Assembly: GCA_019058015.1 (NCBI GenBank)
Contig: JAHLWH010000192.1
Coordinates: forward strand, 302-64,301
Direction of reading: 5' to 3'
Origin: Promethearchaeota archaeon
GTDB taxonomy: Archaea > Asgardarchaeota > Lokiarchaeia > Sigyniarchaeales > SOKP01
Length of the DNA stretch: 64,000 bases
The notes under the pieces are model-generated. The model saw nothing but the letters and a program-made list of their open reading frames with translations, ran no database searches and was not told the DNA's origin. Made by a program: the position numbers and the translations under genes. Shown here piece by piece: positions 1 to 20,070 of the stretch (the stretch's first letter is position 1; each line of letters begins with the position of its first letter).

Positions 1-510
1 ATTCTACTTGATAATAATTCTCATTTCTTTCTTTTTCAGTTGTTTCATAAATTATGTCTGGTTTAATGCTTGTTGAGAATCTTTTGGTCAAGCAGATTAC
101 CTAATTATGTTGTATTATTTTATGAATAATGGTATTTTTGAAGGTTTCTAATCTAATTAGTTATTAAATAGACTTTTTAGTTTAAAAAGGTTTTTCAACT
201 TGGTTAAAAAAAGATCATATCTATACAAAAAATTAAGATATTTGATTTTTTAAAATGCTATTGAATTTGAATTAATAATTATTAATATTCCACTTATTTT
301 GTTCTATTAAACCTTTTATAAACTCAAATTTAGGCAAATATTGGTATGAGATACAGCTGGACCTAAAGTATTATTATCGCTTAAAATTTTTACTAAAAAA
401 TTTATACAATTAGAATTTATAGAATAAATTAAATCTCTTAAATAATTAGATGGATTATATTACATTTTTGCAATAAATTATCTTTAAGTAAGTTGATATT
501 TGGGATTTAA

Positions 511-5346: not shown

Positions 5347-7548
5347 ATGAATTTTATTGAATTCATAATTAAGAACAGAATTTTAAATAAGTGTAAATCA
5401 AAATCAGAGAATTTTATTTTTTTAATTGTAAGAAATTTTGATTTATTGGTTAATTTATTTCTAGTTTTAAGTATATTTTTAATTACCATTAGTTTTTTCG
5501 GTTTTAATTTAAATTCATTGTTTATTTTATTTCCAAGCGTGTTTCTTATTTATTTTATTCCTGGATACCAACTATTCTTCAGAATATTTGAACATAAATA
5601 TAATTTCATTGAAAAAATCGCATTAACAATAATATTTAGTATGATTTTTAATATTTTGATTGGAATAATTGGGGGGTATTTAGGCATATTGATATCAGGT
5701 TTATTTTATATGATCTGTATTCTTATAGCATTTTATTTTCTTATGTTTTTAAATAAATGTATTAGAAAAACTGCACTTATTAAACAAAATGATGTAATGC
5801 ATATTGGGAACTTAATTCCTAAAAATTTCTTACTATTTATTGTATTTCTTGTGTTATTTGCATTTTTCTCAATTTCGCGATATCCCTTATTATTTGGGAC
5901 TGATCCTTGGTTCCATTTAATTTTAACTAACGAGATTATTGAAACAGGAAAAATTCCATTTGAATCATATAGAGGATTAAATGGATTACATCTTATGGGA
6001 GCTGTTATACATTTTTTTTCTGGATATCCAACTATTGAAATAGTTCGATATTTTCCAATTATTAATTATATAATTTCTGGCTTAATAGGATTGATAGTAT
6101 TTAAAAAAATTTTTAAAAATAACCAGATTGGAATTCTTAGTTCTCTATTATTATTAGTTGCTCCATATCATTATGATGAAGCACAGAGTCAATATTCTCC
6201 AACTGCTTTATGTTTATCCATTTTTCTTTTTATGATGTTTTTTTATATTGAGCGTATTAAAAATTTTAAATTTGAGATTAAACAGTCTGTGATAAGCTAT
6301 ATTTTCATAGGTATCGGTTTTTTTGCATTAATTTTTATTTCAGATATAAGTGCAATTTTATTTTTAGGTTTATTTATCTTTATTTCGTTTTTTTTTACAA
6401 TTCTTGATAAGAAAAAATTCATTGATTTGGGATTTTTTACTTTCTTATTTCTAATTTATGTAGTGTATAATATTATTGGCTTTCAAACAATTATTGTTGA
6501 AAGCTTTTTGGTTGATCTATCATTACCAATATATCTTTTCCCAATTCTTGGTGTAATTGGGATTAGTTTAATAATTTTGATTAGTAAATATTCATCTGAA
6601 CCAAAAGGGAAATTTAAATCCTGGTTGAATGTAGAACCAAATGCAAGTATTTTAAAAAAGGTTAGTTTGATATATTTGAAACCAATTTTAATCATATTAA
6701 TCATAATACTTCCGATTATTATATCAATTTTAATCACAATCAGTTTTACTATATCTTATGATTTTGTATATATATTCACATATATAGTGATTCCTATAAC
6801 AGTTATTGTTGCTTCTATGATCTTATCTGTTTTTGGAGTTATTATTTATCGTAAGAAGCATTTAGATGGCACATTAATATATCTTTGGACATACTATTCA
6901 GTTTTGATTCTTGCAGTTTATTTTATTTATGATTTATTATTTATCAAATATATGTTATGGATACGAATGATCACATATTCGAGTATTGGATTAATATGCG
7001 CAGAAATGGCATATTTATTTTATTTATATCAAGATAAATTCTTTAAACCAAAAACTTACAAAAAGTTTTATTTAATTGTTTTTAATTTAACACTTATTAG
7101 TTCATTATTGGCTACGTCAAATGTAACTCAGTTTAAAAAAAGTTATGAAATCTCAAGTGCTCAATGGTTTGGAAGACATTTAAGTAAAGAGAGTTCTTTC
7201 TTGACCGGATTTAGATGGAATTATATTTTAGATTATTATTCAGGAGAAAATCAAAGTATTTATTTTAATGAAGCATTTCTTTTATTTCCATCTAATCAAA
7301 TAAATGAAACTGGTTTTAACAATTTAAGGCAATTTCAACAAGAATTAAATGAAATTGATTTATTTTTATTGTTAGATGATAAGCAGATTATGGAAGGAAT
7401 ATTTGGTGATGTAATCGGAATTAATTTAGGAAAGTTAAATTCTACAATATTAAAAGAATATTATAATTTACCCTATTTAAATAGAATATTTACATCAAAA
7501 AATGCAATGAATCAATCGGTTCAGGTTTATTGGGTTAATGGAAATTAA
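5347..7548 (+). CDS. Large GT-C-type membrane protein, possible divergent AglB/STT3-like oligosaccharyltransferase
   Basis: 733 aa, with more than 12 hydrophobic helices followed by a ~150-aa soluble C-terminus. The first-loop motif 'GTDPWFHL' (5902-5916) resembles the STT3/AglB loop-1 acidic motif. 'SAQWFGRHLSKESSFLTGFRWNYILDYY' (FRWNY at 7210-7224) sits where WWDYG would be but is degenerate. Confidence 0.4.
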   Translation: MNFIEFIIKNRILNKCKSKSENFIFLIVRNFDLLVNLFLVLSIFLITISFFGFNLNSLFILFPSVFLIYFIPGYQLFFRIFEHKYNFIEKIALTIIFSMIFNILIGIIGGYLGILISGLFYMICILIAFYFLMFLNKCIRKTALIKQNDVMHIGNLIPKNFLLFIVFLVLFAFFSISRYPLLFGTDPWFHLILTNEIIETGKIPFESYRGLNGLHLMGAVIHFFSGYPTIEIVRYFPIINYIISGLIGLIVFKKIFKNNQIGILSSLLLLVAPYHYDEAQSQYSPTALCLSIFLFMMFFYIERIKNFKFEIKQSVISYIFIGIGFFALIFISDISAILFLGLFIFISFFFTILDKKKFIDLGFFTFLFLIYVVYNIIGFQTIIVESFLVDLSLPIYLFPILGVIGISLIILISKYSSEPKGKFKSWLNVEPNASILKKVSLIYLKPILIILIIILPIIISILITISFTISYDFVYIFTYIVIPITVIVASMILSVFGVIIYRKKHLDGTLIYLWTYYSVLILAVYFIYDLLFIKYMLWIRMITYSSIGLICAEMAYLFYLYQDKFFKPKTYKKFYLIVFNLTLISSLLATSNVTQFKKSYEISSAQWFGRHLSKESSFLTGFRWNYILDYYSGENQSIYFNEAFLLFPSNQINETGFNNLRQFQQELNEIDLFLLLDDKQIMEGIFGDVIGINLGKLNSTILKEYYNLPYLNRIFTSKNAMNQSVQVYWVNGN

Positions 7549-7569
7549 ATTATTTTTAATTTAAACCAA

Positions 7570-9951
7570 TTAAAAAATTATTTTATTTTTTTTTGTCCAA
7601 TTAATTAATTGTTCTATTCCTTCTTGAGGATTTATTTTTGGGTTCCAATTGAGTTTTTGTTTTGCTTTGGATATATCAGAGATGTAGACTTTTTGATCAC
7701 TTGGTCTCCAATCAAAAAATTCTAGATTTATTTTTTTATCTAATTTATTTTCAAGTAAAGATATTAACTCAAGTAAAGAAAGTGTATTTTCCTTTCCACC
7801 ACCCATACAAAATACTTCATGTTTTAATTTTTGAGAGTTTTTAATGAATTTATCATATGCATTAATTAAATCAGATACATATAATAAATCGCGAACTTGT
7901 TTTCCATCTCCATAGATATTGATTTTTTTATCTAATATTGCTGAAATTACAAAATGAGCAACCCATCCTGGGTCCTCAAAGCCGAATTGCCTTGTTCCGT
8001 AAATACAATTATGAACCAAAAAACCATTAGCTATAAAAATATGAGTATTTTCAACAGTAATATCATATATATCTTCCATCTCTATTTGTTTAATTTCAAT
8101 TATATTATCCCATAATAATTCTTTGGGAAGATTTTTATTATAAAACCTAAACCATTTTATAAATGATTTTTCATTGCTTTTATCCCACTCCATAAAATTA
8201 TATAATTCAGAATTTCGATAAGGATGACAAGCAAATCCGACTTTTGCAAAATTTGTTCTGTTTTTTTTTCCTGCATAAATTTTAAATACTCTTTGAATTG
8301 TTGTTACTCCAGATTTTCTTTTATAATCACCACCATTAAAAATTTCACTTGTTTTTACTCCAAACTCTTGTAAAAGTATTTTTTTTATTGTATTAAGATA
8401 ATCATATAAATTGGATCCGAGTTTTTCATCTTTACTTTGTGCAAATGAAAGACCCCCGTATCTCTCATCAGTATAAGTTATTCGAGCAAGTTCAGCAGAA
8501 AATAGACCTGTTAAAAAACATCGTCGTGTTTCTCTATCGCTTTCTAAAATCCAATTTGGAATATTAAAGGATTTTAAAGCTTTATCTCCTAATGGGACAC
8601 CCAATAATTGAAATAAAGAGCTATATTCTGCTTGAGTTATGACTATTCTTATACTTTTTCCATTTATTACTCTTCCATTAGTTAATTTAGATTTAGAAAT
8701 AGTAATTTGTTCTTTAGAATGAGGTATTCCCAATGAATCCAAAATCTTTTTTATAAAATTAATTTCTTCTTCTTTACCATAAATCTGTAATGCTAAAGAG
8801 ATATTATTCCTATTTTTAGCTTGATATGTATAAAGATTAGCATCTCCAAAACAATAACCAACTAATTCTATTATTCTTTGATAACCTCTTGCAGCTTTTG
8901 AAAAGGGAAGTAATCCTTTTTCTTCCATAGATTTTATTTTTCTTTGAATTGTTATTTCTCTAATATTTAATTTTTTTAGATTTTTATAAATATCATCCTT
9001 AGTAACTAATATTTCACAATTATCTTCAAAATCTATATATTCTTTTTCAATTTGAGGATAAATACATATTAATTCACCATAATTTAATGAATCTATTCTC
9101 TTAAATCCATTTGGTGTATAAAATCTATGGTCTCCTGTTGCTTTTATTATATGATTTCTTCTTGTAGTTATTTTATAAAGTATTTTATTTTCAGAATTTG
9201 TCCTTAATTGTTTAATTACATTAGAAAAAACAATTTTTTTACCATCAAATGAAAGAAGAATATCATTTTCATTAATATCCATTATTTTTTTAGAACCAAG
9301 TATAGTTTGAATAATTGTATCTCCTGTTAAGCACGACATTCTAAACACCCCAGTTTTTAATCCATATATGTGTCCATATTCTTGAACATAAACATCAGCA
9401 CAAAATTTAGAAGCGCCATACGGAGTATGTTCGCATAAATCTGTAGAAAATTCCTCAGATATGCCATTTTTATATTCTGAAGTAAATTCATATCTTGTTT
9501 CTTTTTCCTCAATATCACATTCATTAACGTTATTACCGAATACTTTATTTGTAGAACAAAAAACTATTGCAGGATTTGATTTCGAAATTCTCACAGCTTC
9601 CAATAGATTATAAGTTCCAATTAAATTATTCTCGAAATCTTCTTTTGGATTGGTTACTGAAGTGGTTACTGCAGTCTGTCCTGCAGCATGAATTAATACA
9701 TCAATTTCATTTTTTTTTAATAAATCCTTTAAAAAGTCAAAATCTCTTATATCTTTTTGGCAGAACTCGATATTCTTGTATTGATGCAAATAATTCCAAT
9801 TATACATTGCATTTTTATCATCTTTATGCAACAATCTTGCACGGGATAAATTATCAATTACAATGACTTTATTATTTTTTTGTTTTGCATAATATTCAGC
9901 CACGTGTGAGCCAATAAAACCCCCACCGCCAGTAACAACGATTTGATTCAT
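7570..9951 (-). CDS. NAD-dependent sugar epimerase (CDP-paratose 2-epimerase-like SDR) interrupted by an intein
   Basis: The N-extein 'MNQIVVTGGGGFIGSHV...VIDNLSRA...YGASKFCAD...GVFRMS' and C-extein 'CIYGTRQFGFEDPGWVAHF...GDGKQVRD...' join into a ~351-aa extended SDR. It has the GxxGxxG and YxxxK motifs. Confidence 0.9.
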   Translation of the reverse strand: MNQIVVTGGGGFIGSHVAEYYAKQKNNKVIVIDNLSRARLLHKDDKNAMYNWNYLHQYKNIEFCQKDIRDFDFLKDLLKKNEIDVLIHAAGQTAVTTSVTNPKEDFENNLIGTYNLLEAVRISKSNPAIVFCSTNKVFGNNVNECDIEEKETRYEFTSEYKNGISEEFSTDLCEHTPYGASKFCADVYVQEYGHIYGLKTGVFRMSCLTGDTIIQTILGSKKIMDINENDILLSFDGKKIVFSNVIKQLRTNSENKILYKITTRRNHIIKATGDHRFYTPNGFKRIDSLNYGELICIYPQIEKEYIDFEDNCEILVTKDDIYKNLKKLNIREITIQRKIKSMEEKGLLPFSKAARGYQRIIELVGYCFGDANLYTYQAKNRNNISLALQIYGKEEEINFIKKILDSLGIPHSKEQITISKSKLTNGRVINGKSIRIVITQAEYSSLFQLLGVPLGDKALKSFNIPNWILESDRETRRCFLTGLFSAELARITYTDERYGGLSFAQSKDEKLGSNLYDYLNTIKKILLQEFGVKTSEIFNGGDYKRKSGVTTIQRVFKIYAGKKNRTNFAKVGFACHPYRNSELYNFMEWDKSNEKSFIKWFRFYNKNLPKELLWDNIIEIKQIEMEDIYDITVENTHIFIANGFLVHNCIYGTRQFGFEDPGWVAHFVISAILDKKINIYGDGKQVRDLLYVSDLINAYDKFIKNSQKLKHEVFCMGGGKENTLSLLELISLLENKLDKKINLEFFDWRPSDQKVYISDISKAKQKLNWNPKINPQEGIEQLINWTKKNKIIF
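8008..9333 (-). mobile_element. Intein (442 aa) with LAGLIDADG homing-endonuclease domain
   Basis: Starts with Cys ('CLTGDTII', codon 9333-9331). Block B is 'TGDHRFYT'. The two LAGLIDADG blocks are 'LVGYCFGDANL' and 'FLTGLFSAELA'. It ends 'FLVHN' (Asn codon 8010-8008), followed by the +1 Cys (8007-8005). Confidence 0.9.
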
Positions 9952-10389
9952 TTTTAAAAAATAATTACTTTATAATATTTGGTTTACTATTAAATTAATC
10001 AATTTTCTTAATTATAGAAATTAAAATTACCCATAATAATTAAATTTTCCACATAGTCCAATAAATTATTCAAATATTCGAAATTAAATGTAGAGACTCA
10101 TATGATTTTAAAAATAATTAGAAATCGAAAAATGCATAAATACACAAATCGATAAAGATCAATTAAAAATTATATCACCCAATAAAAAGATAAAGATTAA
10201 TATAGAAAACAAAATTTTATTAATATGATTTCGCATTATTATATTACGAAAAAGAAAAAAAGAAGAAATTATAGACACAAAAACTAATTAAAGTTATTTA
10301 TACCATCTTAAAAATATAATATTTTATTGAAAATCATAGGAGTTTCATAATTTATAAGTCAAAGATTATTATGAATTATTGTATTTACA

Positions 10390-10590
10390 AGTCTCTATGA
10401 AGTATAAAGAATGTGGTGCAACTCCACGCTCACTTCCGCTCAATGTTGCTTTATGGCTATCATAGTTAGGGGAGCAAAAAGAGTCTTCATACCGAGGGAA
10501 GCAATTGGTTAGAGTAGATATAGCATACGCAGTGGAAAAGCAGTCCCAAAAGCTTCGGTAGATGGGATAGAGGGCATAGGGTTATGCCCA
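10390..10590 (+). ncRNA. Candidate structured ncRNA (unclassified)
   Basis: A ~200-nt island visibly GC-richer than its AT-rich intergenic surroundings, with no ORF above ~35 aa on either strand. Nested helices: UCCCA[AAA GC-UUCG-GU AGA]UGGGA, and the terminal hairpin GGGCAUA-GGGU-UAUGCCC followed by a U-rich tract. Strand choice is weak (UUCG loop plus downstream U-run). Confidence 0.3.
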
Positions 10591-10777
10591 TATTGTGTTA
10601 TTATTTAATAAAATGGATAACAGAATTAAACAAGATTAGTTAGGTTTTACTAGTCTTGATAACCTGGGAACTCTCAAAAATCATAAAAATCTATATTTAA
10701 ATTTCAAAAATGATGTTGAAAATCGTACAATTTCAAATCCTTCTCGCGCGGAATTATACTTCCTTTCAGCTTTTCAT

Positions 10778-10963
10778 TTGATCGAAAGCTGTACTGCAAA
10801 ATTTAAAGTACATATAAACAAACATCAAAGAGTAAGAAAAGTTTTAGAAAGGAATCATGAAATTTTTAAAGATAATACTGAAGCAATTTGGCGTTTATTT
10901 CATAGATTAGAGAATCAAATTCGACCAAAATTATGCCTAAAGGTTTTAGAAAATGAATCTTAG
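10778..10963 (+). CDS. Small ORF overlapping the downstream nucleotidyltransferase start; tentative HEPN-like partner
   Basis: 61-aa track ORF (TTG start). The same frame stays open back to 10640 ('...NPSRAELYFLSAFHLIESC...') without a canonical start. Its stop overlaps the ATG of the NTase gene. The helical, R/H-containing sequence fits a HEPN-type partner but is not diagnostic. Confidence 0.3.
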   Translation: MIESCTAKFKVHINKHQRVRKVLERNHEIFKDNTEAIWRLFHRLENQIRPKLCLKVLENES

Positions 10964-11639
10964 ATTAGAAGAAGAAAATATTAAATTCATTAAAAAAAAC
11001 GAAGAACAAGAAAAATTAATAAAATATATTAAAAATTTTATAAAAAAAAATCAATCTAAATTTAAAAATATTGATTCCATATTAGTTTTTGGTTCTTTAA
11101 CTTCTGGAACTTTTACTGATGAGAGTGATATTGATATTTGTATATTTTTAAAAAAAAATACTCCGAAAGCTATAGAAAATAATATATTTAGTAATTTTTT
11201 AGATTTAGAAAAAAAAATAGATCGATTAGTCCAGTGTATTTTTATTTATCCTGAAGAAATTGAAAATTGGGATTCAAATTTTATTGAAAATATTTTAGCT
11301 GAAGGTCGTCTAATATATGGAACTTCGAATTTTTTGGAGATTCCCTTTAAAACTTTGAAATTAAAACCATTTTTAATTATAAAATTCAATTTAAGAGAAT
11401 TGGATAAATCAATTAAAATGAAAATAAAAAGAATGTTGTATGGTTATCAAACTAAAAAGAGATATTTTAAAAAAGTATATCAATATCAAAAAGATGGATT
11501 AGTACAAGAAATAAAAGGATTTAAATTGGGGCGAGGAGCTTTTCTTATTCCTGAAAAATATTTGTGGTTAATAGAGAACAAATTTATGGAATATAATGTA
11601 AACTTTACTCACTTCCGTGTATGGCTTCAAGAAGAATAA
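10953..11639 (+). CDS. Nucleotidyltransferase-domain protein (MNT/Pol-beta superfamily) with extra C-terminal domain
   Basis: 'ILVFGSLTSGTFTDESDIDICIF' is the G-S ... DxD minimal nucleotidyltransferase signature. 228 aa. Confidence 0.7.
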   Translation: MNLRLEEENIKFIKKNEEQEKLIKYIKNFIKKNQSKFKNIDSILVFGSLTSGTFTDESDIDICIFLKKNTPKAIENNIFSNFLDLEKKIDRLVQCIFIYPEEIENWDSNFIENILAEGRLIYGTSNFLEIPFKTLKLKPFLIIKFNLRELDKSIKMKIKRMLYGYQTKKRYFKKVYQYQKDGLVQEIKGFKLGRGAFLIPEKYLWLIENKFMEYNVNFTHFRVWLQEE

Positions 11640-11651
11640 AATGATACCTAT

Positions 11652-11717
11652 ATGTCCGAAGAAGATAAATACAGCAAAAGTATGAAGCAAATAAAATCAG
11701 AATTAAAAACCAATACT
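11652..11717 (+). pseudogene. Orphan 5' fragment duplicating the start of the Roadblock-like gene at 17114
   Basis: 'atgtccgaagaagataaatacagcaaaagtatgaagcaaataaaatcagaattaaaaaccaatact' aligns base-for-base, with a few substitutions, to 17114-17179. Confidence 0.65.
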
Positions 11718-11978
11718 GTTTATTTTTTTAATATTTATATTGTTTTAACTGTTTATCAAAAACTTATAAAAATTTATAAAACACACAACTAATTCCATGA
11801 ATTAACCTTAAGGCTGGTCTTTCCAAAAGCGGAAAGATTGAGGATTGGAATAAATTTTGGAATTTTATAGAAATTACCAAATTTTTATAAACAATTAGAA
11901 GGTTGCTCTTTGTAGATTTTGAAAATATTTCTTGAAAAGGTAAAATGAAGAAGAAAAGGTAATAAATCAATTTTAAGA

Positions 11979-12475
11979 TTAGTTTATTATCAGCTTATGT
12001 TCTTTTAGCACTTTAATAGGTTTTTTATACCCAAATTTATCATATAATTCTGGTTTTAATTTTTTCATTGTTAATTGATATGTTTTTTCATTTTTTTCAG
12101 ATTTAAAAAAAAGCATATCATTTTTAACAAAGAGAAGGCTTGCGTAATATTCTAATAACTCTCTATCTCTGATTAAAGGAGTTAAGAACTCATTTGCTCG
12201 TTCTAGTATTTCCTTATCTCTATCATCAAGTGTGTAATCACTTTTTTCTCCAGAATTTAAAAAACTATCTATTTGATAATAAATATCAGCTAATTAGGAG
12301 GAATAAGGCCCATACTTATACCAATTAAATCGACTTTGAAATTTCAATCCAAATTTTTTTAGTATATAGAAAACTTTTTGAATTATAATTCTGTTAGTAA
12401 TCGTTGAAATATTAGAGTTAATTCCAAGATATTGCAAATTTGAATAAATCGTTCAATATCTTTTTTTATATACAT
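11979..12475 (-). pseudogene. Disrupted ORF (frameshift plus in-frame TAA), possibly Panacea/SocA-like
   Basis: My manual minus-strand translation gives 'MYIKKDIERFIQICNILELT...' and then, in another frame, '...KVFYILKKFGLKFQSRFNWYKYGPYSS*LADIYYQIDSFLNSGEKSDYTLDDRDKEILERANEF...KVLKEHKLIIN*'. The 'W.YGPYS' region recalls DUF4065/Panacea domains. Confidence 0.4.
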
Positions 12476-12620
12476 GCCTATACAATATTATTTTTTGATC
12501 TTAATAATATATTCTCATTATATTATTTAAATTCTAGAGTTGCTAAAATTAGTAATTTCATTTATTAATTTTAATATTCATATATTGATAATATAAGATT
12601 AATACATTAAACGTTTATAA

Positions 12621-12658
12621 ATAAATTTCGTATAATTTCGTATAATTTCGTATAATTT
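12621..12658. repeat. 10-bp tandem repeat (tataatttcg x ~3.5)
   Basis: Read directly: 'ataaatttcg tataatttcg tataatttcg tataattt'. Confidence 0.85.
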
Positions 12659-12687
12659 TCACCACAGTGTTATAATCTACGTTCCAT

Positions 12688-12993
12688 TCAATAGCAATAT
12701 TTAAGGGCAGAATAAATTCCAAGTAATGGTCCTCGATTTCTTTTGGTATTTAACTTATCATCCGTATCATCTAATATGAATGAAAGATTATCAAATTGTT
12801 TGAGGGCATCTTTATATTTTTGAATTTGGTTTTCATCATGAGCTGAGAGAAAAATCTTTTTGCTGAATTTTTCCAGTATCCCAACTTGATATTCAATAAA
12901 AGATTTACCAGATATTTTCATTAACCCTTTATCTATACCAAATCGTTTACTCATTCCACCAATTAAAATTATAAAAGCAATTTCTTTACTCAA
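12688..12993 (-). pseudogene. Truncated MobA-like nucleotidyltransferase (N-terminal half only)
   Basis: 'AFIILIGGMSKRFGIDKGLMKISGKSFIE' and '...GPLLGIYSAL' match the N-terminal half of MobA/NTP_transf_3 proteins. The ORF stops at 101 aa, about half the normal length, and has no continuation downstream. Confidence 0.55.
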
Positions 12994-13031
12994 TCTGTTT
13001 ATATCCTTTAATATTTTATTAAATTCTTCTA

Positions 13032-13964
13032 TTAATATAATGGAAAGAAAAGGATGGTAATGGAAAGAATTATTCCTATTAATATAGTAATTATTACATA
13101 GGTGATTATGTAGAATTTTTTCCTCTCATCTTTTTGTTTTTCAATAAATATTCCAACAACAAAAGCATAAAAAAGCCATTGAGAAAATTGAAACATTTTC
13201 CAAAATACAATTATAATGAGTCTTATTAGGTTTATTAAATCAAGTTCTGAAGGAAGATCACAACCAAAAAATCCTAAATTATTCAGCCATTGATACAGAT
13301 AATTTGGGATAATGAAATAAGGAATCATTATACATATGAACGGAAATATGTAGTAAAGAAATAAATCTTTAACTCTAATTTCCTTATTGATTAATATAGC
13401 AAGTAAGTAAATAATTGCATTAATTTTGAAAATCGCCAGGAAAAAATAAATTGATGCAACTCCTTTTTTTTCTTTTAATAACATTCGATATGATTGGAAT
13501 AAGAAAAAAAGTATCAGAAAATTTGCGTTGTTGAGAAATTGATCAAAATAAAAGGCAATAATTGTAAATGCAAGCCAAAAAAAGTAGTTTTTATCATTTT
13601 TTATAATCTCATCAATCTTAAAAAGAACATAAAAAATTACAGTTAATCTAAGCCCATCCCAAATAAAAAATCCAATCTCGTTAGGCAATAATGTGAGCGG
13701 ATAAAAATAAAAAAACCAGTAGTAAAGATAAGGACAATATGCATCATTTGTATTATCATATAAGTTAAAAAAACCATTTTCAATCATATCAACCCATAGG
13801 AGATAGTCTCCATCAACTAACTCAAAAAGAGAAGGAGTAATCATATGAAGAATTCTGAAGATTACTATCATTATATAAAGTATGATTATAAGAATGATAC
13901 TTAATTTTCTTAGCTGTTTTCGATTTAACATCATAATGATATGATCTTGATATTTGGCAATCAA
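13032..13964 (-). CDS. Polytopic membrane protein (DUF2029/GT87-like, tentative)
   Basis: 310 aa, rich in aromatic residues, with ~8-9 hydrophobic helices. The family assignment is by general resemblance only. Confidence 0.35.
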   Translation of the reverse strand: MIAKYQDHIIMMLNRKQLRKLSIILIIILYIMIVIFRILHMITPSLFELVDGDYLLWVDMIENGFFNLYDNTNDAYCPYLYYWFFYFYPLTLLPNEIGFFIWDGLRLTVIFYVLFKIDEIIKNDKNYFFWLAFTIIAFYFDQFLNNANFLILFFLFQSYRMLLKEKKGVASIYFFLAIFKINAIIYLLAILINKEIRVKDLFLYYIFPFICIMIPYFIIPNYLYQWLNNLGFFGCDLPSELDLINLIRLIIIVFWKMFQFSQWLFYAFVVGIFIEKQKDERKKFYIITYVIITILIGIILSITILFFPLY

Positions 13965-14118
13965 TAGTGAATTTTATTTATGCCTTTCTGTAAAAATATA
14001 TTCGCTAAGATTGAATTATTTATAACGCTTAAATAATTACGTATGCTTTAAGATTTTTTCTTCATATCACCCGGATATTATATACCCTTAAATAAAATTT
14101 TTATATGCTCTTAGAAGT

Positions 14119-14622
14119 ATGGAAAAACTTCAAATATTAAGGAGTTCTCCTAACTACGACGAGTTGGTCAAATTATATAAAAAGGAGAAAAATTTTAAGC
14201 TGAAGGAGCGATACCACGCTCTCTTTTTGATGTACGAGCTTAAAAATTGCACTAAAGTTGCAAAATTGCTCAAAAGATCCCGAAGGACGATTCAATTATG
14301 GGTAACTGTGTTTAATGAGGGAGGTATAAACGCGTCAATTCTAAATACGCCTCCCGGACGCCCATCAAGGCTTTCAAAAAGTCAAATAGAAGAATTAAAA
14401 GCGGATATTCTAACGCATCCTCGTAATTTAGGGTACGAGTTTAGCAATTGGGAGGGGAAGAGCGTATCTTACCACATTAAAAAGAAATTTGACGTGGAAC
14501 TTAAAGTGCGCCAATGCCAAAACCTTCTTCATAAAATGGGTCTCACGCTCCAGCGCCCGAAATACAAGTTTCCAAAAGCCGATCCGGAGAAACAAAAGGA
14601 GTTTGTGAAGGAATATTTTTAA
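14119..14622 (+). mobile_element. IS630/Tc1-mariner-type transposase, N-terminal DNA-binding half only
   Basis: '...ERYHALFLMYELKNCTKVAKLLKRSRRTIQLWVTVFNEGGI...GRPSRLSKSQIEELKADI...WEGKSVSYHIKKKFDVELKVRQCQNLLHKMGLTLQRPK' is the paired HTH region of IS630 transposases. No DDE domain follows. The gene is visibly GC-richer than its flanks. Confidence 0.7.
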
Positions 14623-14658
14623 TAATTTAATCACATATATAAAGAAATTATAAATTTA

Positions 14659-14770
14659 TTATAACAAGTGCAATTCCTAAACTCATGCATTAAAAAGAGA
14701 GTTTGATACCGCTCCTTGAATTTAGGATTTTTTCCATTTTGTATAACTCTACTAATTTTTCATAATTAGA
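14659..14770 (-). pseudogene. Second, inverted IS630-type transposase N-terminal fragment
   Basis: My minus-strand translation 'EGLSNYEKLVELYKMEKNPKFKERYQTLFLMHEFRNCTCYNKF' parallels 'SSPNYDELVKLYKKEKNFKLKERYHALFLMYELKNCTKVAKL' of the 14119 ORF. Confidence 0.5.
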
Positions 14771-14783
14771 GAGTCCCTCAAAA

Positions 14784-14972
14784 ACTAAAAAGAGATATTT
14801 TAAAAAAGTATATCATTATCAAAAAGAGGGAATAATACAAGAATTAAAAGGATTTAAATTAGGCCGCGGAGCTTTTCTTATTCCTGAAAAATATTTGTGG
14901 TTAATAGAGAGCAAATTTATGGGATATAATATAAATTTTACTCACTTCTGTGTTTGGCTTCAAGAAGAATAA
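14784..14972 (+). pseudogene. 3' fragment duplicating the end of the nucleotidyltransferase gene at 10953-11639
   Basis: 14784-14972 aligns to 11451-11639 with scattered substitutions, including the stop and the following 'aaaat'. No 5' part of the gene is present. Confidence 0.75.
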
Positions 14973-15005
14973 AATATATACTATATTTACTAAAATTAGG
15001 AAATT

Positions 15006-15797
15006 CTAGTAAAAAAATTCATAGTTTGGATAAAAATCCTCTATTTTTTTCTTAATTAAGGTAAATTCATCACCTACAATTTTAATAATTTTTGGTATTT
15101 TTCCTACCTGTCCTACTTTTTCCTCCCTACTAATAAAAGCTCCGAATATTCCTTCGAGATCATCCACAAGATCTAAACCCTTTTTTATTGACTTTTCAAT
15201 ATCAGAGCCTTTTACGGCATTAGCAATTTTTGTAGCAGCACCATCAGCAAGAGTGGCATTTTTTGCGAAGATAGTAACGATATCAGATTCTCCGAAACTA
15301 ATTGCATGACCAATTTTAGCGGAGCTTGAACCAATGCCAGAAGGAGAATCATTTTTAGTTATAAGGAAACCTAATTTTCCACCCAGTAGATTTTTTCCTG
15401 CATATAATCCAACTTTAATGGATTCTTTAGCATTAATTGATATTTCTCCCCCATTTTCAACAACTGCTATCTTCAATGGGAACAATCCCTCATTCATTTT
15501 CATTTTTTTTACCATTATATCAGCAAGAGCGCCAGCAACTGTAGCCATCGGACCAACATCGCATATTGCTGAATATTTAACCATAAGTCTAATAATTTCA
15601 GAAGGATTTTTGACTTTTATTGGTGAAAGAGATTTTAAAAAAATCTCATTTTTATACACAAATTTCTCAAGAATCGTTCTATGTTTATAAAAAGATTTAA
15701 TAGCTAATTTAATTGCCTTTTTTGACTCAGAGATTATAGTGACATCTGATTCCTTTTCAATGAAGTGATACGAGAATTTATTCATTAAAAATACCAT
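15006..15797 (-). CDS. UPF0280-family protein (ApbE-like fold)
   Basis: 'CDVGPMATVAGALADIM', 'ENGGEISI', 'GIGSSSAKIGHAISFGESDIVTIFAKNATLADGAATKIAN' follow the pattern I recall for archaeal UPF0280 proteins. Confidence 0.5.
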   Translation of the reverse strand: MVFLMNKFSYHFIEKESDVTIISESKKAIKLAIKSFYKHRTILEKFVYKNEIFLKSLSPIKVKNPSEIIRLMVKYSAICDVGPMATVAGALADIMVKKMKMNEGLFPLKIAVVENGGEISINAKESIKVGLYAGKNLLGGKLGFLITKNDSPSGIGSSSAKIGHAISFGESDIVTIFAKNATLADGAATKIANAVKGSDIEKSIKKGLDLVDDLEGIFGAFISREEKVGQVGKIPKIIKIVGDEFTLIKKKIEDFYPNYEFFY

Positions 15798-16014
15798 CTT
15801 TTAAATATGTATCCATACAAAGATTTATTTTATTAGATAACTCCATTCGTTTCTTTTATTATTTAATTTTATTAAGGTTATTAAAAATTTCTAAATCAAA
15901 AAAAAATAATTTCTATTAAATAAATAATCATTATAATAAAATAACAATGAAAGAAGAATTTTAATAAAAGAATGAGTATTACCGAACAGATTCAATTAAA
16001 AATCATCGTTAGAA

Positions 16015-16437
16015 TTATCCTATTTTGGCAATCCAAGATGAATTCCCTTTGATGATTTTGTACTTGTTGAATATTTTCTTATGAATTTTTTTTAAAAAAG
16101 AAAAATATTTTTTTCCAAATAAAGGTTTTCCCTCTTCCATTGCAAATAAGGTTGTACAATGCCGGTTTTCGATCATATTGATGAATTCATCGGGAGTAAA
16201 ACCGATAGGGTCAATAGGGTCAAGAGTCTCGATCAAGTCATAAAGCAATTTTGCCCTTTCATAATAATTTTTAGGTAATTTCGAAGATATCACGATTAAA
16301 TCAACATCGCTTCGCTCGTTAAAATCCCCTCTTGCCAAAGATCCATATAAAATAATGCATTTGGGATTTAATTTTTTAATAATATTTTCACAAAATTTTT
16401 TAATGCCATAATTAATAGTTTTTAAGGAAGTATTCAT
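16015..16437 (-). CDS. Minimal nucleotidyltransferase (MNT), TA-module component
   Basis: 'IILYGSLARGDFNERSDVDLIVIS' is the GS...DxD motif. 140 aa. Its start overlaps the stop of the upstream HEPN gene by 4 nt. Confidence 0.8.
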   Translation of the reverse strand: MNTSLKTINYGIKKFCENIIKKLNPKCIILYGSLARGDFNERSDVDLIVISSKLPKNYYERAKLLYDLIETLDPIDPIGFTPDEFINMIENRHCTTLFAMEEGKPLFGKKYFSFLKKIHKKIFNKYKIIKGNSSWIAKIG

Positions 16438-16829
16438 TTTTTAATACCTTTAATAAAATTAATTATTATTGACGCATTATTTAAAGCCTCTTCAGCAATA
16501 ACTTCATCATGATATTCGAATGGTGACCCTGTGGAATATGCATTTGGATATCGAGAGGGAATGTAATGTAAATCTAACTTTTTACAAGCAGTTAATATTG
16601 AAGAAACATTAATATCATGATTTTTTAGGTCGCTAGTTAATTTTGTTAAAGAGTGACCAAAAGGAGTTGATCCTAAACCATATAAAAGCGCTTTTAATGA
16701 AAACTCAGCTGCTTGTTGACATTTAAAACAGCTCCAATTGAAAAATCCATTTTTCTTATCTATTTCTGCTGATTTTAATGTATTGTCTGCTTCATTCATC
16801 CATCTATTATATTCATTATTATCAAACAT
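16434..16829 (-). CDS. HEPN-domain protein, partner of the MNT
   Basis: 131-aa helical protein ('AEFSLKALLYGLG...GHSL', 'HYIPSRYPNAY'). Translationally coupled to the MNT gene. Confidence 0.7.
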   Translation of the reverse strand: MFDNNEYNRWMNEADNTLKSAEIDKKNGFFNWSCFKCQQAAEFSLKALLYGLGSTPFGHSLTKLTSDLKNHDINVSSILTACKKLDLHYIPSRYPNAYSTGSPFEYHDEVIAEEALNNASIIINFIKGIKK

Positions 16830-17113
16830 TATTATTCATCAAATATAATAATTTTAAATTAGATTTTTAATAATACAGAAAAAATTCCTAATAATTTTGT
16901 GTATAAAAGTATTACAACCTTCTAATTATTTATAAATTTTTAAAGAACAGTGTAACAATAAAAATGAAAATTATAATAAAAAATTTGATTAGTTTGTAGA
17001 AAGAGAAACGACATTTTGTAAAAAAATTTATAACATTATATTTACATGATTTAGGTATAAGGGTAAATTATTTTTATCGCTTATATTTCAATATTCCACA
17101 GAATGATTCCCAG

Positions 17114-17608
17114 ATGTCCGAAGAAGATAAATATAGCAAAATTGTAAAACAAATTAAATCAGAATTGAAAACCAATACATTAATCGCAAATAAATATGGT
17201 GTAATATTAGGTTCTGAAATTGAAGATTTGCATAAAGGAAAAATTATTCCGCCAGAAATTTCGGATTTGATAAATCAGAGAGCGATATTCGCTAAAAGTC
17301 TTAAATTGAAAAATATAGATTCAATAACTTTAGAAAGCGAAAAATGCTTTTTCTTAATCACTAAAACTAGTGAATTAATTTTACTAGCGCAGTTAAAAAA
17401 AAGTGTAGATTTATCACAACTTATTCCAAGTGTAAAAAAGTTTCTCGAAAAATTAGCAAAAGGTATTTCAAAAAAATTTGAAATTGATGAATTCACAAAA
17501 TTTGAATTCATAAAAGAAATAATTAAGTTAGATGATTCATTAAAAACAGATGAAGATAGACAACAGAAATTTAATATTATTAAAGATTTAATTAAGTACA
17601 TTTCATAA
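17114..17608 (+). CDS. Roadblock/LC7 (MglB-like) domain protein
   Basis: 164 aa. 'LIANKYGVILGSE' ... 'ITLESEKCFFLITKTSELILLAQL' follows the roadblock alpha-beta-alpha pattern (compare MglB). It sits directly upstream of a small-GTPase gene. Confidence 0.55.
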   Translation: MSEEDKYSKIVKQIKSELKTNTLIANKYGVILGSEIEDLHKGKIIPPEISDLINQRAIFAKSLKLKNIDSITLESEKCFFLITKTSELILLAQLKKSVDLSQLIPSVKKFLEKLAKGISKKFEIDEFTKFEFIKEIIKLDDSLKTDEDRQQKFNIIKDLIKYIS

Positions 17609-17662
17609 ATTATTATAAATAAATTTAAAACGTGTATTAGGAGTTTAAGATTTAATATTTAG

Positions 17663-19519
17663 GTGAATATTATTCTAAGGCAAGTTTATATTTATAAAGA
17701 GGGTGAATTGATATATTCCAGTCAGTTTGGCAAGGCATTATCGCAAGAGGTTTTTGATAGTTTGTTCAAACAACTACGTAAAGATGCTATGGCTGCACCA
17801 AGTGATAAGATTGAATATCATGATTACTATAAATATAGAATCACATACGCTACGGAAAAAAAAATAGATTTAATGTTCTTATTTGTAACGGGTATAACTG
17901 ATTCATCCAAAGATATTAAAACTGAATTACTTAGATGTAAAAGGGAATTTCTTAATCTTTTTGGGGATATAATCAAAACTGAATTTGATTCTAAAACTTT
18001 TGAAGTATTTGACCCAACAATTGATGTAATTCATAAAAATTTACGCCCCAAAATTTCACTCGTAGGATTTTCTGGTGTTGGAAAGACAACTATAACTAGA
18101 TTAATTAGGGCTGAAGAAATACCAATGGAACATATCCCTACTATAACTGGAGACATAGCAACTATTAAAATAGGAAAACTACACTTTCATTTATGGGATT
18201 TTGCAGGACAAGAACAGTTTAGCTATTTATGGAATAACTTTATTAAAGGAAGTGATGCAGTCCTTCTCATTACAGATTCAACTTTAGAAAATATAGAAAA
18301 AAGTAAATTTTTCCTCGATTTAATAAAAGATGAAGCACCCCATGCACATACTGCAATAATTGGAAACAAACAAGATCTTTCAGATGCTATTCCTGTAACA
18401 GAAATTGAGAACATTTTAGGTTTAAAAACTTATAATATGATTGCAAATAGAAAGGAAAATCGGGATAAAATGATTACAATAATTGCTGATATCCTTGAAA
18501 TGAGTGCAGAAGTAAGCCCCTTATTGAAACCATTGATTGAGAGAGATAAATTATTACAAGAAGCCGAATTATCACTTAATGAAGGCAATTTCCAAAATGC
18601 TTTAACCTTATTTGAAAAAATTTCGGATTTATGTCTTGATTTAGGTGATGATAGTTTAGGAAATGAATTTAATGAAAAAGCCCAGAAGATTAAAGAAATT
18701 TTAGTAAAGATGGAAACAACCCCAGTTGAAATTGTTAAACAAAAAGAAGAAGCTCAACCTACATCGGTTGAATCAACATCACCTGAACCCAAAGTTGCTC
18801 CGAAACCGGCAATTCCTAAACCACCAGCAATAAAAAAAACAACTGTACCAGAACCTAAAGCTGCTCCGAAACCAACAATCCCTAAACCTCCAGCAAAAAA
18901 AAAGCCAACTGTACCAGAACCTAAAGCTACTTCCAAACCAACTACACCTAAATCACAATCCACACAGCCAAAATTAACAATTAATCTAGAAGATTTTAAA
19001 ATTAAACCTCGTCCAACAAATATCTTATCCGCAAAACCCACTGGACCTAAACAATCATTAACTATTAGCCCCTTTAGTGCTATAAAACAAGAAGAACCTC
19101 AACCAAAACCATATACTACTAAACCCAAATCACCATATCAACAACCCTTACCTGATTCTAAAAAACCATCTCCGCCAATGCAAATAGCACAACCACCCAC
19201 CCCACCGAAAGCTCCACCTCAAACCTCTGTTCCAAAGCCTCTAACTCAGCCAACCCCAGCCCCAACCGAACCCCCAACAACAACCGTAAGAGACCAAGCA
19301 GGCACACAAAAAAATGAACTTGAAAAAACCTTAATGGATTTAAAGATTAAATTTGCAAATATTGCTAAAATGGAACTCGACCTTGATATGAAAGAACTTT
19401 CGGGAGAAATAACCTCAGAAGAGTTTAATAAGAAATCACAAAAAATGAAAGCCATAAAAGAGAACATATCAAAACAAATTGACGATATTCAGAATCTGTT
19501 AAATAGTTTTAGCGCATAA
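17663..19519 (+). CDS. Multidomain small GTPase: longin-like N-domain + Arf/SR-beta-like G domain + helical region + Pro/Lys-rich repeats + coiled coil
   Basis: G1 'GFSGVGKTT', G3 'WDFAGQEQF', G4 'GNKQDL' (NKQD is typical of Arf-type GTPases). The N-terminal ~125 aa ('ILRQVYIYKEGELIYSSQFG...YKYRITYATEKKIDLMFLFVTG') looks longin/SRX-like. The C-terminus carries PEPKAAPKP repeats and a heptad-like tail. Confidence 0.8.
   Translation: MNIILRQVYIYKEGELIYSSQFGKALSQEVFDSLFKQLRKDAMAAPSDKIEYHDYYKYRITYATEKKIDLMFLFVTGITDSSKDIKTELLRCKREFLNLFGDIIKTEFDSKTFEVFDPTIDVIHKNLRPKISLVGFSGVGKTTITRLIRAEEIPMEHIPTITGDIATIKIGKLHFHLWDFAGQEQFSYLWNNFIKGSDAVLLITDSTLENIEKSKFFLDLIKDEAPHAHTAIIGNKQDLSDAIPVTEIENILGLKTYNMIANRKENRDKMITIIADILEMSAEVSPLLKPLIERDKLLQEAELSLNEGNFQNALTLFEKISDLCLDLGDDSLGNEFNEKAQKIKEILVKMETTPVEIVKQKEEAQPTSVESTSPEPKVAPKPAIPKPPAIKKTTVPEPKAAPKPTIPKPPAKKKPTVPEPKATSKPTTPKSQSTQPKLTINLEDFKIKPRPTNILSAKPTGPKQSLTISPFSAIKQEEPQPKPYTTKPKSPYQQPLPDSKKPSPPMQIAQPPTPPKAPPQTSVPKPLTQPTPAPTEPPTTTVRDQAGTQKNELEKTLMDLKIKFANIAKMELDLDMKELSGEITSEEFNKKSQKMKAIKENISKQIDDIQNLLNSFSA
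18782..18952 (+). repeat. 66-nt (22-aa) tandem repeat, ~2.6 copies, inside the GTPase gene
   Basis: Units at 18782-18847, 18848-18913 and 18914-~18952 encode 'PEPK(V/A)APKP(A/T)IPKPPA(I/K)KK(T/P)TV'. Confidence 0.85.
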
Positions 19520-19857
19520 AAGATTATAGAATAAATTCCTTAAAATTATATGTTAATAGAAATATTTTTCTTTTTTTCATTTTGAATTATAAATTTCGTT
19601 TATATAAATTATGAGAATTTTGTATTTTTAAAATTTATATAAGAGTTATTTTTTTGTTTGCTTTTTTCATGTCTACTTTCCTTTTTATCTGGGAAATATC
19701 AATCTTAGTTTAATGTGAATAACAGTAAAATATAAATACCAAAATAAAAACAAATTAACATACCAGAAATTTGGAATTAAAATAAAAATTTATAAAGATG
19801 TGAAATATAAAAATAGTTGTGAGGAAATCAACCATGGTAGTGTATAAATGATAATAG

Positions 19858-20070
19858 AATGCCTATTATCAATATACATCTATTGAAATTGTCTCAACTT
19901 CAGATAAAAATTGGGCAGATGCCGTAAGAGAAGGTTATGCCGAAGCAAAAAAGAGTTTAAAAGGTATTAGAAATATATCCATTATTCAATCTGATGTTAA
20001 AGTAAAAGAAGATAAAGATCAACTAATCTATCGAGTAAGAATGCAAATAAATTTTGAACTTGAGAAATAA
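19858..20070 (+). pseudogene. Dodecin-like ORF with no in-frame start codon after a TGA-TAA-TAG triple stop
   Basis: My manual translation 'NAYYQYTSIEIVSTSDKNWADAVREGYAEAKKSLKGIRNISIIQSDVKVKEDKDQLIYRVRMQINFELEK*' matches the dodecin pattern (Y..IE(I/L)VGTS ... V.F.LE). The frame contains no ATG, GTG or TTG before the conserved core. Confidence 0.5.

Follow-up and report, generated by a model that had tools for sequence, protein, structure and literature searches.

The stretch of DNA analysed here, called the window throughout, comprises 64,000 nucleotides (nt) of contig JAHLWH010000192.1 (assembly GCA_019058015.1) from a Promethearchaeota archaeon. Between a sugar-epimerase gene and a group made up of a UPF0280 gene, a Roadblock-like gene and an Arf-like GTPase gene, the window carries two partial gene duplications: the end of a nucleotidyltransferase (NTase) gene and the beginning of the Roadblock-like gene each occur twice. 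Comparison with related loci makes it somewhat probable that this arrangement is a layered recombination scar, produced by sequential displacement through homology-facilitated illegitimate recombination at a cassette hotspot. The loci used for comparison come from metagenome-assembled genomes (MAGs) and metagenome contigs of Promethearchaeota/Lokiarchaeota and are labelled L001-L021. The features of the locus are the following.

10953-11639, plus strand: intact NTase gene, 228 amino acids (aa), MNT-like (Pfam Polbeta, 2e-12; NTP_transf_2, 3e-11)
11449-11645, plus strand: repeat A, the final 190 nt (63 codons) of the NTase gene and a further 6 nt
11640-11716, plus strand: repeat B, the Roadblock stub, a 12-nt leader and the first 22 codons; the open reading frame (ORF) of the stub reaches 11792
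11717-11802, no strand assigned: segment s, 86 nt, which among related loci matches the sister strain only
11803-11904, minus strand: segment z, 97% identical to L003 sequence directly upstream of the HEPN gene, inverted
11979-12437, minus strand: 152-codon ORF with one in-frame TAA (12294-12296) and a weak match to the PADLOC DarG model
12688-12993, minus strand: N-terminal half (fragment) of a MobA-like guanylyltransferase gene (Pfam NTP_transf_3, positions 2-83/160; NCBIfam MobA, 4-84/200)
13032-13964, minus strand: GT87-like membrane protein, 310 aa (Pfam GT87, 4.5e-6)
14119-14622, plus strand: IS630 fragment 1, the N-terminal helix-turn-helix (HTH) half only (NCBIfam transpos_IS630, 5e-27, positions 2-133/299)
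14609-14781, minus strand: f2 block, 173 nt, which holds IS630 fragment 2
14782-14978, plus strand: repeat A', a 5'-truncated NTase stub that runs into the UPF0280 flank exactly as the NTase genes of L009 and L003 do
15006-15797, minus strand: UPF0280 gene (NCBIfam PRK04334 models, E=3e-65)
16015-16437, minus strand: MNT gene (Pfam NTP_transf_2, 2e-9)
16434-16829, minus strand: HEPN gene (Pfam HEPN, 2e-31)
17102-17178, plus strand: repeat B', the 5' end of the functional Roadblock-like gene
17114-17608, plus strand: Roadblock/LC7-fold protein, 164 aa, with a C-terminal helical extension (by profile and predicted fold)
17663-19519, plus strand: Arf/Ras-like GTPase, 618 aa, with a Pro/Lys-rich repeat linker and a coiled-coil tail (Pfam Arf, 4e-21; also Roc and Ras)

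A repeat search of the window delimits the two pairs. A and A' match over 212 nt at 90% identity (11449-11660 against 14782-14993; spacing 3333), and B and B' over 77 nt at 87% (11640-11716 against 17102-17178; spacing 5462). In gapped local alignment the first pair has 205/234 identities and a score of 170, the best of 200 shuffles being 25; the second has 67/77 identities and scores 57, with a best shuffle of 29, again out of 200. The aligned blocks are G/C-bearing coding sequence and not low-complexity AT words, and self-BLAST of the whole 64-kb window found no further copy of either repeat. A sequence-only reading of this DNA had described the duplicated junction, with both pairs at these places and extra, partly decayed DNA bracketed by the copies. 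That description holds; the direction of change which it proposed, and its agent, an insertion sequence (IS), do not.

The source is a MAG contig, and the arrangement could be artificial, two strain haplotypes having been joined into a chimera during assembly; in line with this, the bin GCA_019058215.1 holds two UPF0280-MNT haplotypes (L001 and L017) that are 96-97% identical in their overlap. The junctions are, however, reproduced elsewhere. The sister strain L017 (a 99.8-kb contig of GCA_019058215.1, assembled independently) is 99-100% identical to the window over 9900-15121; this stretch includes the NTase and the Roadblock stub, everything between that stub and A', A' itself and the beginning of UPF0280. 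L018 (Logan assembly, SRR14803106) spans the junction from the NTase through the Roadblock stub into the downstream segment s, L004 (an ENA metagenome) has the same junction of NTase and Roadblock stub with a different NTase allele, and the right-hand copy is matched at 99-100% by L001 and L002. Assemblers, moreover, do not collapse repeats with a divergence of 10%. An assembly chimera of the window, which the sequence-only reading had itself raised as an objection, is very unlikely, and hardly any weight need be given to it.

The gene order before the duplication can be read from the relatives. The closest syntenic one, L009 (a 912-kb contig), has an intact locus with single copies of the epimerase, NTase, UPF0280, MNT, HEPN, Roadblock and GTPase genes, in that order. 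Relative to L009, the window contains exactly 3,333 nt of extra DNA (11646-14978), and not the single insert of ~5.4 kb that the distance between the outer copies had suggested. L011 and L016 have the order of L009 without MNT/HEPN; in L014, which has UPF0280-Roadblock-GTPase, both the NTase and MNT/HEPN are missing; and in L010 and L012 a VapBC pair stands in place of the NTase. Common to L009, L010, L011, L012, L014 and L016 are UPF0280 on the minus strand and the Roadblock-like and GTPase genes on the plus strand. More distant relatives (L019/L020 at 60% identity, L021 at 71%) also keep UPF0280, on the minus strand, immediately upstream of the Roadblock-like gene, and the GTPase gene downstream of it. 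Altogether, UPF0280 lies directly upstream of the Roadblock-like and GTPase genes in eight related loci, down to 60% protein identity. The distant homologues of the NTase (about 55% identity) occur in unrelated contexts, behind a small partner gene and not beside Roadblock.

On gene order, the ancestral arrangement is shown to have been epimerase (minus), UPF0280 (minus), Roadblock (plus) and GTPase (plus). The conserved core is, by the same comparison, UPF0280, the Roadblock-like gene and the Arf-like GTPase gene; the NTase and MNT/HEPN are accessory cassettes, the former (MNT-like) to the left of UPF0280 in this clade and the latter to its right in a subclade. Judged by these neighbours, the flexible cassette site is located between the sugar-epimerase gene and the core. 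Since UPF0280 next to Roadblock is kept in the relatives and the distant NTases are elsewhere, the direct NTase-Roadblock junction of copy 1 is derived. The polarity is thus the reverse of that proposed earlier, in which a simple NTase-Roadblock-GTPase arrangement was the ancestor and the junction of copy 2 had been split by the UPF0280 and HEPN/MNT genes. UPF0280 is ancestral at that place, and only MNT/HEPN, which is not in L011, L014 or L016, is accessory there.

The two copies of each repeat differ strikingly in their affinities. Over 194 nt, A is 1 nt away from L009 and 2 nt from L003, whereas A' is 15-17 nt from A, L009 and L003 alike. In the Roadblock 5' ends (77 nt), eleven related full-length genes are within 0-4 nt of each other, and B' is equally close to all of them; B is 10-13/77 nt from every one and is identical (66/66) to the copy in L004. 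The divergence from sampled full alleles is therefore about 8% for the NTase stub A' and 13% for the Roadblock stub B. Nine changes are private to A' when L011 serves as the outgroup. Six of these are non-synonymous and three synonymous, and they include R to C in the invariant FRVW motif, a sign of relaxed selection. The differences between A and A' fall at codon positions 1:2:3 as 5:2:7, by estimate not a significant bias. Polarized by L021 and L019, B has four derived changes, and both of the amino-acid changes hit family-conserved I and V residues. At three sites B keeps the outgroup state where all sampled full-length genes share a derived base, and the stub thus predates the common ancestor (or the last sweep) of the sampled functional alleles. 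No full-length Roadblock protein with the N-terminus of the stub (SKSMKQ) was found among 24 relatives. The earlier view that recombination was involved, and that the event is old or drew on a diverged donor, or both, is supported.

The divergence of the stubs also bears on whether the repeats arose where they now lie. An in-place tandem duplication from the NTase end to the Roadblock start, with UPF0280-MNT/HEPN deleted from the first copy, foreign DNA inserted at the joint and neutral decay thereafter, would give direct repeats in the same order and orientation, as observed, and the stubs do show relaxed selection. But copy A differs from L009 by only 0.5% (3% over the whole NTase), to be set against the 8% and 13% of the stubs from all alleles. 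That the stubs are more diverged than A and B' are from L009, a locus without the structure, argues against a recent duplication in place, as do the ancestral states in B. At least four independent extra steps would be required, and the position of the f2 block, which is shared with L003 and L010, would be left unexplained. We regard this origin as unlikely.

The f2 block and the flank of A' are informative in another respect. A' (7.7-8.2%) and the adjoining 3' 700 nt of UPF0280 (8-9%) are diverged to a like degree from L009 and L003, the corresponding figures being about 3% for NTase copy 1, which is 96.7% identical to that of L009, and 1-3% for MNT/HEPN. Equal divergence implies that A' and UPF0280 move together, in a single haplotype block. 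The f2 block is also found upstream of the cassette adjacent to UPF0280 in L003 and L010; f2-A'-UPF0280 accordingly forms a unit that is organised like a different haplotype, one whose NTase was already truncated. Among the relatives the NTase alleles are strongly mosaic, from which frequent short-tract homologous recombination among lineages follows. A sharp switch of NTase identity at about 11250 relative to L003 and L004 was considered as the crossover of the event and rejected; it separates two allele classes shared with L009 and L011.

The boundaries of the structure are at 11645/6, 11716/7 and 14781/2, and none of them is the end of an IS. At the junction of A and B, the two sides share AAT, and 12 nt separate the NTase stop from the Roadblock ATG. 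B gives way to s within codon 23 of the Roadblock gene, past which the similarity ceases. The junction of f2 and A' is a 738-nt deletion relative to L003, the ends of which share the microhomology TCAAA. By the look of their ends, the junctions in the window are illegitimate.

The sequence-only reading had attributed the remodelling to IS630, through transposition or through recombination between IS630 copies that inserted or rearranged the DNA. Two IS630-derived fragments are indeed present in the extra DNA, as had been seen, one of them directly at the A' boundary, and in L003 GC-rich IS-like DNA begins at a TA beside segment z. Both fragments are nevertheless internal and decayed. Fragment 1 stops near residue 165 of roughly 300 (the gene call in L017 is just 131 aa), and fragment 2 (about 14668-14782, minus strand) consists of ~38 frameshifted codons, residues about 8-44, and is cut inside the transposase ORF exactly at the A' boundary. 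Neither fragment contains a DDE domain, there are no terminal inverted repeats or TA duplication at any boundary, and no intact IS630 copy is present in the 64-kb window. The only inverted repeat in the region (I1) is the coding homology of the two fragments. Fragment 2 also predates the event: it occupies the corresponding place in L003 and L010. The IS630 pieces are, as far as their structure tells, passengers and not the agent, and an IS630-driven origin appears quite unlikely.

Nor does the locus resemble the insertion of a site-specific integrative element. The repeats are 212 nt long and just 90% identical, and are not short exact att repeats; no recombinase domain was found in 11.6-14.8 kb. 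There is no Rfam match in 9500-20000 at E<=1 and no tRNA gene in the window, and hence no att-type target.

The clearest view of the process comes from L017, in which a second event is superimposed on the arrangement of the window. As far as 15121, L017 agrees with the window; by that point it has covered 128 nt of the 3' part of UPF0280, which remain as a stub of this gene. There follow a 23-nt filler, a VapBC cassette of the L010/L012 type and then a complete UPF0280 gene. The first ~200 nt of the complete copy are donor-type (89-93% identical to the window, 96-97% to L010 and L012), and the remainder is window-type (99-100%). The stub is 100% window-type and about 89% identical to L017's own full copy. 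Read along the alignment, L017 displays one illegitimate end, with filler, and one homologous crossover about 70 nt beyond it. For this event the window represents the "before" state, and L010 and L012 carry donor-like alleles. The structure is nested, with one layer in the window and two in L017. A related structure is found in L015, where direct repeats of 109 nt and 90% identity (666-774 and 1878-1986) enclose a class I S-adenosylmethionine-dependent methyltransferase gene (292 aa) situated between the UPF0280 and Roadblock-like genes.

A Campbell-type integration is another way of obtaining direct repeats on either side of foreign DNA. In it a circularised, diverged fragment with the order A'-B-s-z-X-f1-f2 (X being the block with the 152-aa ORF, MobA and the GT87 region) would have entered an L009-like chromosome through a single crossover in the 3' end of the NTase gene, duplicating the ~200-nt homology. 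The extra DNA has the form expected of this, an exact circular permutation that starts right after the TAAAAT of A and ends with the TAAAAT of A'; the outlier alleles A' and B would have been contiguous on such a circle. However, A is wholly L009-type and A' wholly divergent, which forces the crossover into the last ~10 nt of the homology. UPF0280 should match the haplotype of NTase copy 1, yet it is 8-9% diverged in the manner of A', and f2-A'-UPF0280 is organised as in L003 and L010. The well-resolved event in L017 is incompatible with such integration: the left copy stops at 15121, short of the crossover near 15190, so that a Campbell product is excluded there. For the window we consider a Campbell origin doubtful.

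The VapBC cassette raises the question of whether the site is served by a dedicated exchange system. Its left boundary is at the same base (GGCAAAAATTATTGA) after three different left sequences (L010 132, L012 19, L017 14182), one pair of boundaries encloses an NTase cassette in L003 and a VapBC cassette in L010, and three independent insertion-with-repeat structures are found at the one locus. An integron-like or otherwise site-specific mechanism, without recognisable integrase, might bring toxin-antitoxin cassettes with defined ends beside UPF0280, the stubs being its footprints. The window has no integrase or recombinase in 11.6-17.1 kb, though, and the serine recombinase of L017 is part of an IS607-like insertion that is distinct and has boundaries of its own. 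No conserved att-like sequence is present at the cassette ends, the right boundary being the 3' end of UPF0280, and ordinary homologous replacement via conserved flanks accounts for the alternation of cassettes. We give the exchange system only a slim chance. The IS607-like element is 3.5 kb long (L017 14319-17859) and lies inside the VapBC cassette with GT at both junctions. Its coding content is a MerR-HTH serine recombinase of 186 aa and an ORF that, at 898 aa, is unusually large and whose single match is a weak C-terminal Cas12f1-like TNB zinc-finger domain (E=5e-4).

We return to sequential displacement by homology-facilitated illegitimate recombination. B and B' have the geometry of L017, namely a distally truncated resident stub, foreign DNA and a complete copy, and from this we infer a history of four steps. 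First, the recipient lineage would have lost UPF0280-MNT/HEPN at the AAT microhomology, which joined the NTase directly to Roadblock. Second, the donor would have been a roughly 10%-diverged relative having f2, an NTase truncated by the 738-nt deletion (A') and UPF0280. Third, a linear donor block would have recombined in, bringing s, z, the 152-aa ORF, MobA, GT87, IS630 debris, f2, A', UPF0280, MNT/HEPN and Roadblock; of these, the 152-aa ORF, the MobA fragment, GT87 and the IS630 debris would have come from the surroundings of the cassette on the upstream side in the donor itself. Its right end would have been resolved by a homologous crossover in or beyond the Roadblock gene, and its left end by an illegitimate join at codon 22 of the resident Roadblock gene. 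The result would be the resident stub B (66 nt) beside the resident NTase (A), with the donor A' and the full Roadblock gene (B') downstream. Finally, the functional genes may later have been homogenised by allelic homologous recombination, while the stubs decayed.

The elements of such a process can be pointed to individually. Illegitimate junctions are seen between B and s in codon 23, at the 23-nt filler following 15121 in L017 and at the TCAAA of f2 and A'. A diverged donor and resident stubs are seen in B (10-13/77 nt), in A' (15-17/194 nt) and in the UPF0280 stub of L017. The homologous crossover is evident in L017.

Several observations weigh against this history. In the older event of the window, the crossover is no longer locatable, the alleles being heavily mosaic. 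In DNA of 25% G+C, a microhomology of 3-5 nt carries little weight as evidence. None of the fetched loci is a donor with the 152-aa ORF, MobA, GT87 and IS630 upstream of f2, and 24 related proteins yielded no pre-event recipient in which the NTase is followed immediately by a full-length Roadblock gene, L004 ending 66 nt into the gene. A common left boundary of VapBC in three contexts is not expected if illegitimate ends are random. Lastly, the inverted orientation of segment z, together with an inverted match of L003 to window 1-102, calls for at least one further rearrangement outside the model.

Some details of L003 belong here. Positions 3-104 of L003 match window 102-1, inverted, only 4.8 kb from the L003 NTase. 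Segment z in L003 ends at a TA, right after which unrelated, GC-richer, IS-like DNA starts (7442-7589). The inverted match and the IS-like DNA after z imply a larger inversion or rearrangement between the genomes of L003 and the window. An inversion linking L003, with its HEPN-z inverted, to the window was also considered; L003 ends 148 nt past z.

Sequential displacement is known from bacterial loci for Rhs, contact-dependent inhibition (CDI) and type VI secretion system (T6SS) effector-immunity modules, including the T6SS of Vibrio, where arrays of "orphan" modules are ascribed to homology-facilitated illegitimate recombination (Kirchberger et al., 2017, PMC5361080, in which Jackson et al., 2009 is cited). 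The present locus is like these arrays in that new cassettes are added beside a conserved anchor gene, one end being homologous and the other illegitimate, and in that stubs of the displaced residents are kept, which share a short homologous piece with the new copy. The arrays are nested in both, and in both the alleles are mosaic, reflecting frequent homologous recombination. It is unlike them in that the cassettes are type II/VII-like toxin-antitoxin modules (NTase, MNT/HEPN and VapBC), and not polymorphic toxins, the anchors are UPF0280 and the Roadblock-like gene, and the host is an Asgard archaeon. In contrast to orphan immunity genes, the stubs here give no sign of being useful.

Homology-facilitated illegitimate recombination itself has been described in transformable bacteria (de Vries and Wackernagel, 2002; Prudhomme et al., 2002; Meier and Wackernagel, 2003; all as referred to in PMC5361080), and a case involving conjugation in E. 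coli is also on record (PMC3240628). The geometry of L017 is that of the bacterial process: a homologous crossover and an illegitimate join with filler or microhomology, with kilobases of foreign DNA added. The difference is that the process is deduced here from comparative genomics alone, and that the older event of the window shows the illegitimate end only. The locus may also be compared with the replacement and additive flexible genomic islands of bacterial pangenomes, e.g., those of Alteromonas (PMC4898812). As in such islands, strain-specific cassettes occupy a fixed site between conserved genes and are exchanged via conserved flanks; unlike in them, partial gene duplications record failed or imprecise exchanges. 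Finally, an IS630/Tc1-mariner insertion or a composite transposon would share with the locus the IS630-derived sequence inside the extra DNA, but not its junctions inside a transposase ORF or its want of intact ends, TA duplication and catalytic domain.

In the library searched, no paper was found that links Asgard archaea with illegitimate recombination. To our knowledge, these archaea are uncultured or barely cultured and their route of DNA exchange is essentially unknown; we know of no DNA-uptake route for them. The event is of a known kind, newly documented in Promethearchaeota: an ordinary genome scar, unusually well documented, which reveals no new molecular system. As read above, the locus would record, to the base, how chromosomal DNA from roughly 10%-diverged relatives was incorporated through a homologous junction on one side and an illegitimate one on the other; this would have happened no fewer than two times at this site, in addition to short-tract allelic recombination, which is very frequent. 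As such, the locus is a useful example for the study of gene flow and of pangenome dynamics among Promethearchaeota. It also carries a warning for annotation: the supposed 46-aa "gene" (11652-11792) is a stub, and so is the piece of NTase at 14782-14975. The idea of an NTase-Roadblock-GTPase operon needs correcting too, the unit that is conserved being UPF0280, the Roadblock-like gene and the Arf-like GTPase gene.

Of the gene labels given earlier, most have stood. Those of the nucleotidyltransferase and the Arf-like GTPase agree with their Polbeta/NTP_transf_2 and Arf matches; against the MntA_antitoxin model, the NTase scores 1e-9, which is under the cut-off of the model. For UPF0280 there is a match to the PRK04334 models, which against NF003321 (220 bits) falls below the NCBI equivalog cut-off of 262. 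The UPF0280 homologue of L003 has a precomputed match to the Pfam ApbE-like family PF27030; the window protein had no match in the Pfam scan. MNT and HEPN are adjacent, with a 4-nt overlap at 16434-16437, and their labels too are confirmed; by gene content and layout, they would form a type VII toxin-antitoxin pair. The membrane protein between the copies is GT87-like, and the MobA-like gene is half-length, as had been noted. What had been called a frameshifted pseudogene is, however, a single ORF with its one in-frame TAA and no frameshift, and is intact (152 aa) in the sister strain L017. A Panacea-like identity for this ORF was dropped, Pfam giving no support and the weak DarG match being the sole one. 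Scans of viral contigs found no viral relatives of the GT87 protein or of the 152-aa ORF, and block X appears to have no recognisable viral character. Exact-protein look-ups for the NTase, GT87 and UPF0280 proteins of the window found no identical proteins.

The Roadblock label fares differently at the two levels at which it can be judged. Neither this protein nor any of 30 relatives has a Pfam match. A profile of the 30-sequence family, on the other hand, matches the Roadblock/LC7 protein 7yh1 in the PDB (E=5e-5). An AlphaFold2 model built on the 30-sequence alignment, obtained by exhaustive profile search, has a mean confidence (pLDDT) of 79, compared with 48 for a 10-sequence alignment. In Foldseek the top match of the model is 9jue, Prometheoarchaeum Roadblock3 (TM 0.79, E=2e-5), followed by LAMTOR (LAMTOR2) and MglB. 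The label is accepted at the level of the predicted fold. The Arf-like GTPase gene lies directly downstream of the Roadblock-like gene in the window, L001, L009-L016, L020 and L021. The linker of the GTPase contains three 66-nt tandem repeats (18771-18968; 64-82% identical to the reference copy), the number of which may vary between relatives, as BLAST offsets suggest, and its C-terminus has a weak CdvA-like coiled-coil match.

The NTase has a partner gene upstream (10640-10963), which in the window has lost its ATG and the C-terminal ~30 residues and in L009 is deleted. In the distant relatives L005 and L008, the partner is 123-148 aa long and overlaps the NTase start. It has no family match in any library searched, and a HEPN-like identity was dropped for lack of support in Pfam and PDB searches. 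The NTase cassette thus looks like a decaying two-gene module. Between a conserved promoter-proximal piece and the partner gene there is an insertion of ~390 nt (10275-10666) with a 43% G+C core (10400-10600); it is in L009 and L017, not in L011 or L016, and has no Rfam match. The GC-rich patch was considered as a structured RNA and rejected, since it folds no better than shuffles (z = -0.25).

Smaller differences are scattered over the locus. A 147-nt AT-rich indel in the gap between UPF0280 and MNT (15841-15987) is in the window and L001, and not in L003, L009, L010, L012 or L017; another of 64 nt, upstream of HEPN (16849-16912), is not in L001. At 12600-12699, a 10-nt tandem repeat (cgtataattt) is present in about three copies, and the alignment with L017 has a 10-nt gap there, consistent with a difference of one unit. 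To the left, the sugar epimerase gene (7570-9951, minus strand; 793 aa in total, an NAD-dependent enzyme) contains an intein at 8008-9331 with an Intein_splicing domain. The intein is in L017 and is missing from the orthologues of L009, L011 and L016, whose alignments jump from 8007 to 9332. To the right, 26920-32807 is a large block of internal repeats (matches of roughly 350 nt to 2.4 kb at 69-76%) with strong purine and G skew, and is probably one giant repetitive gene.

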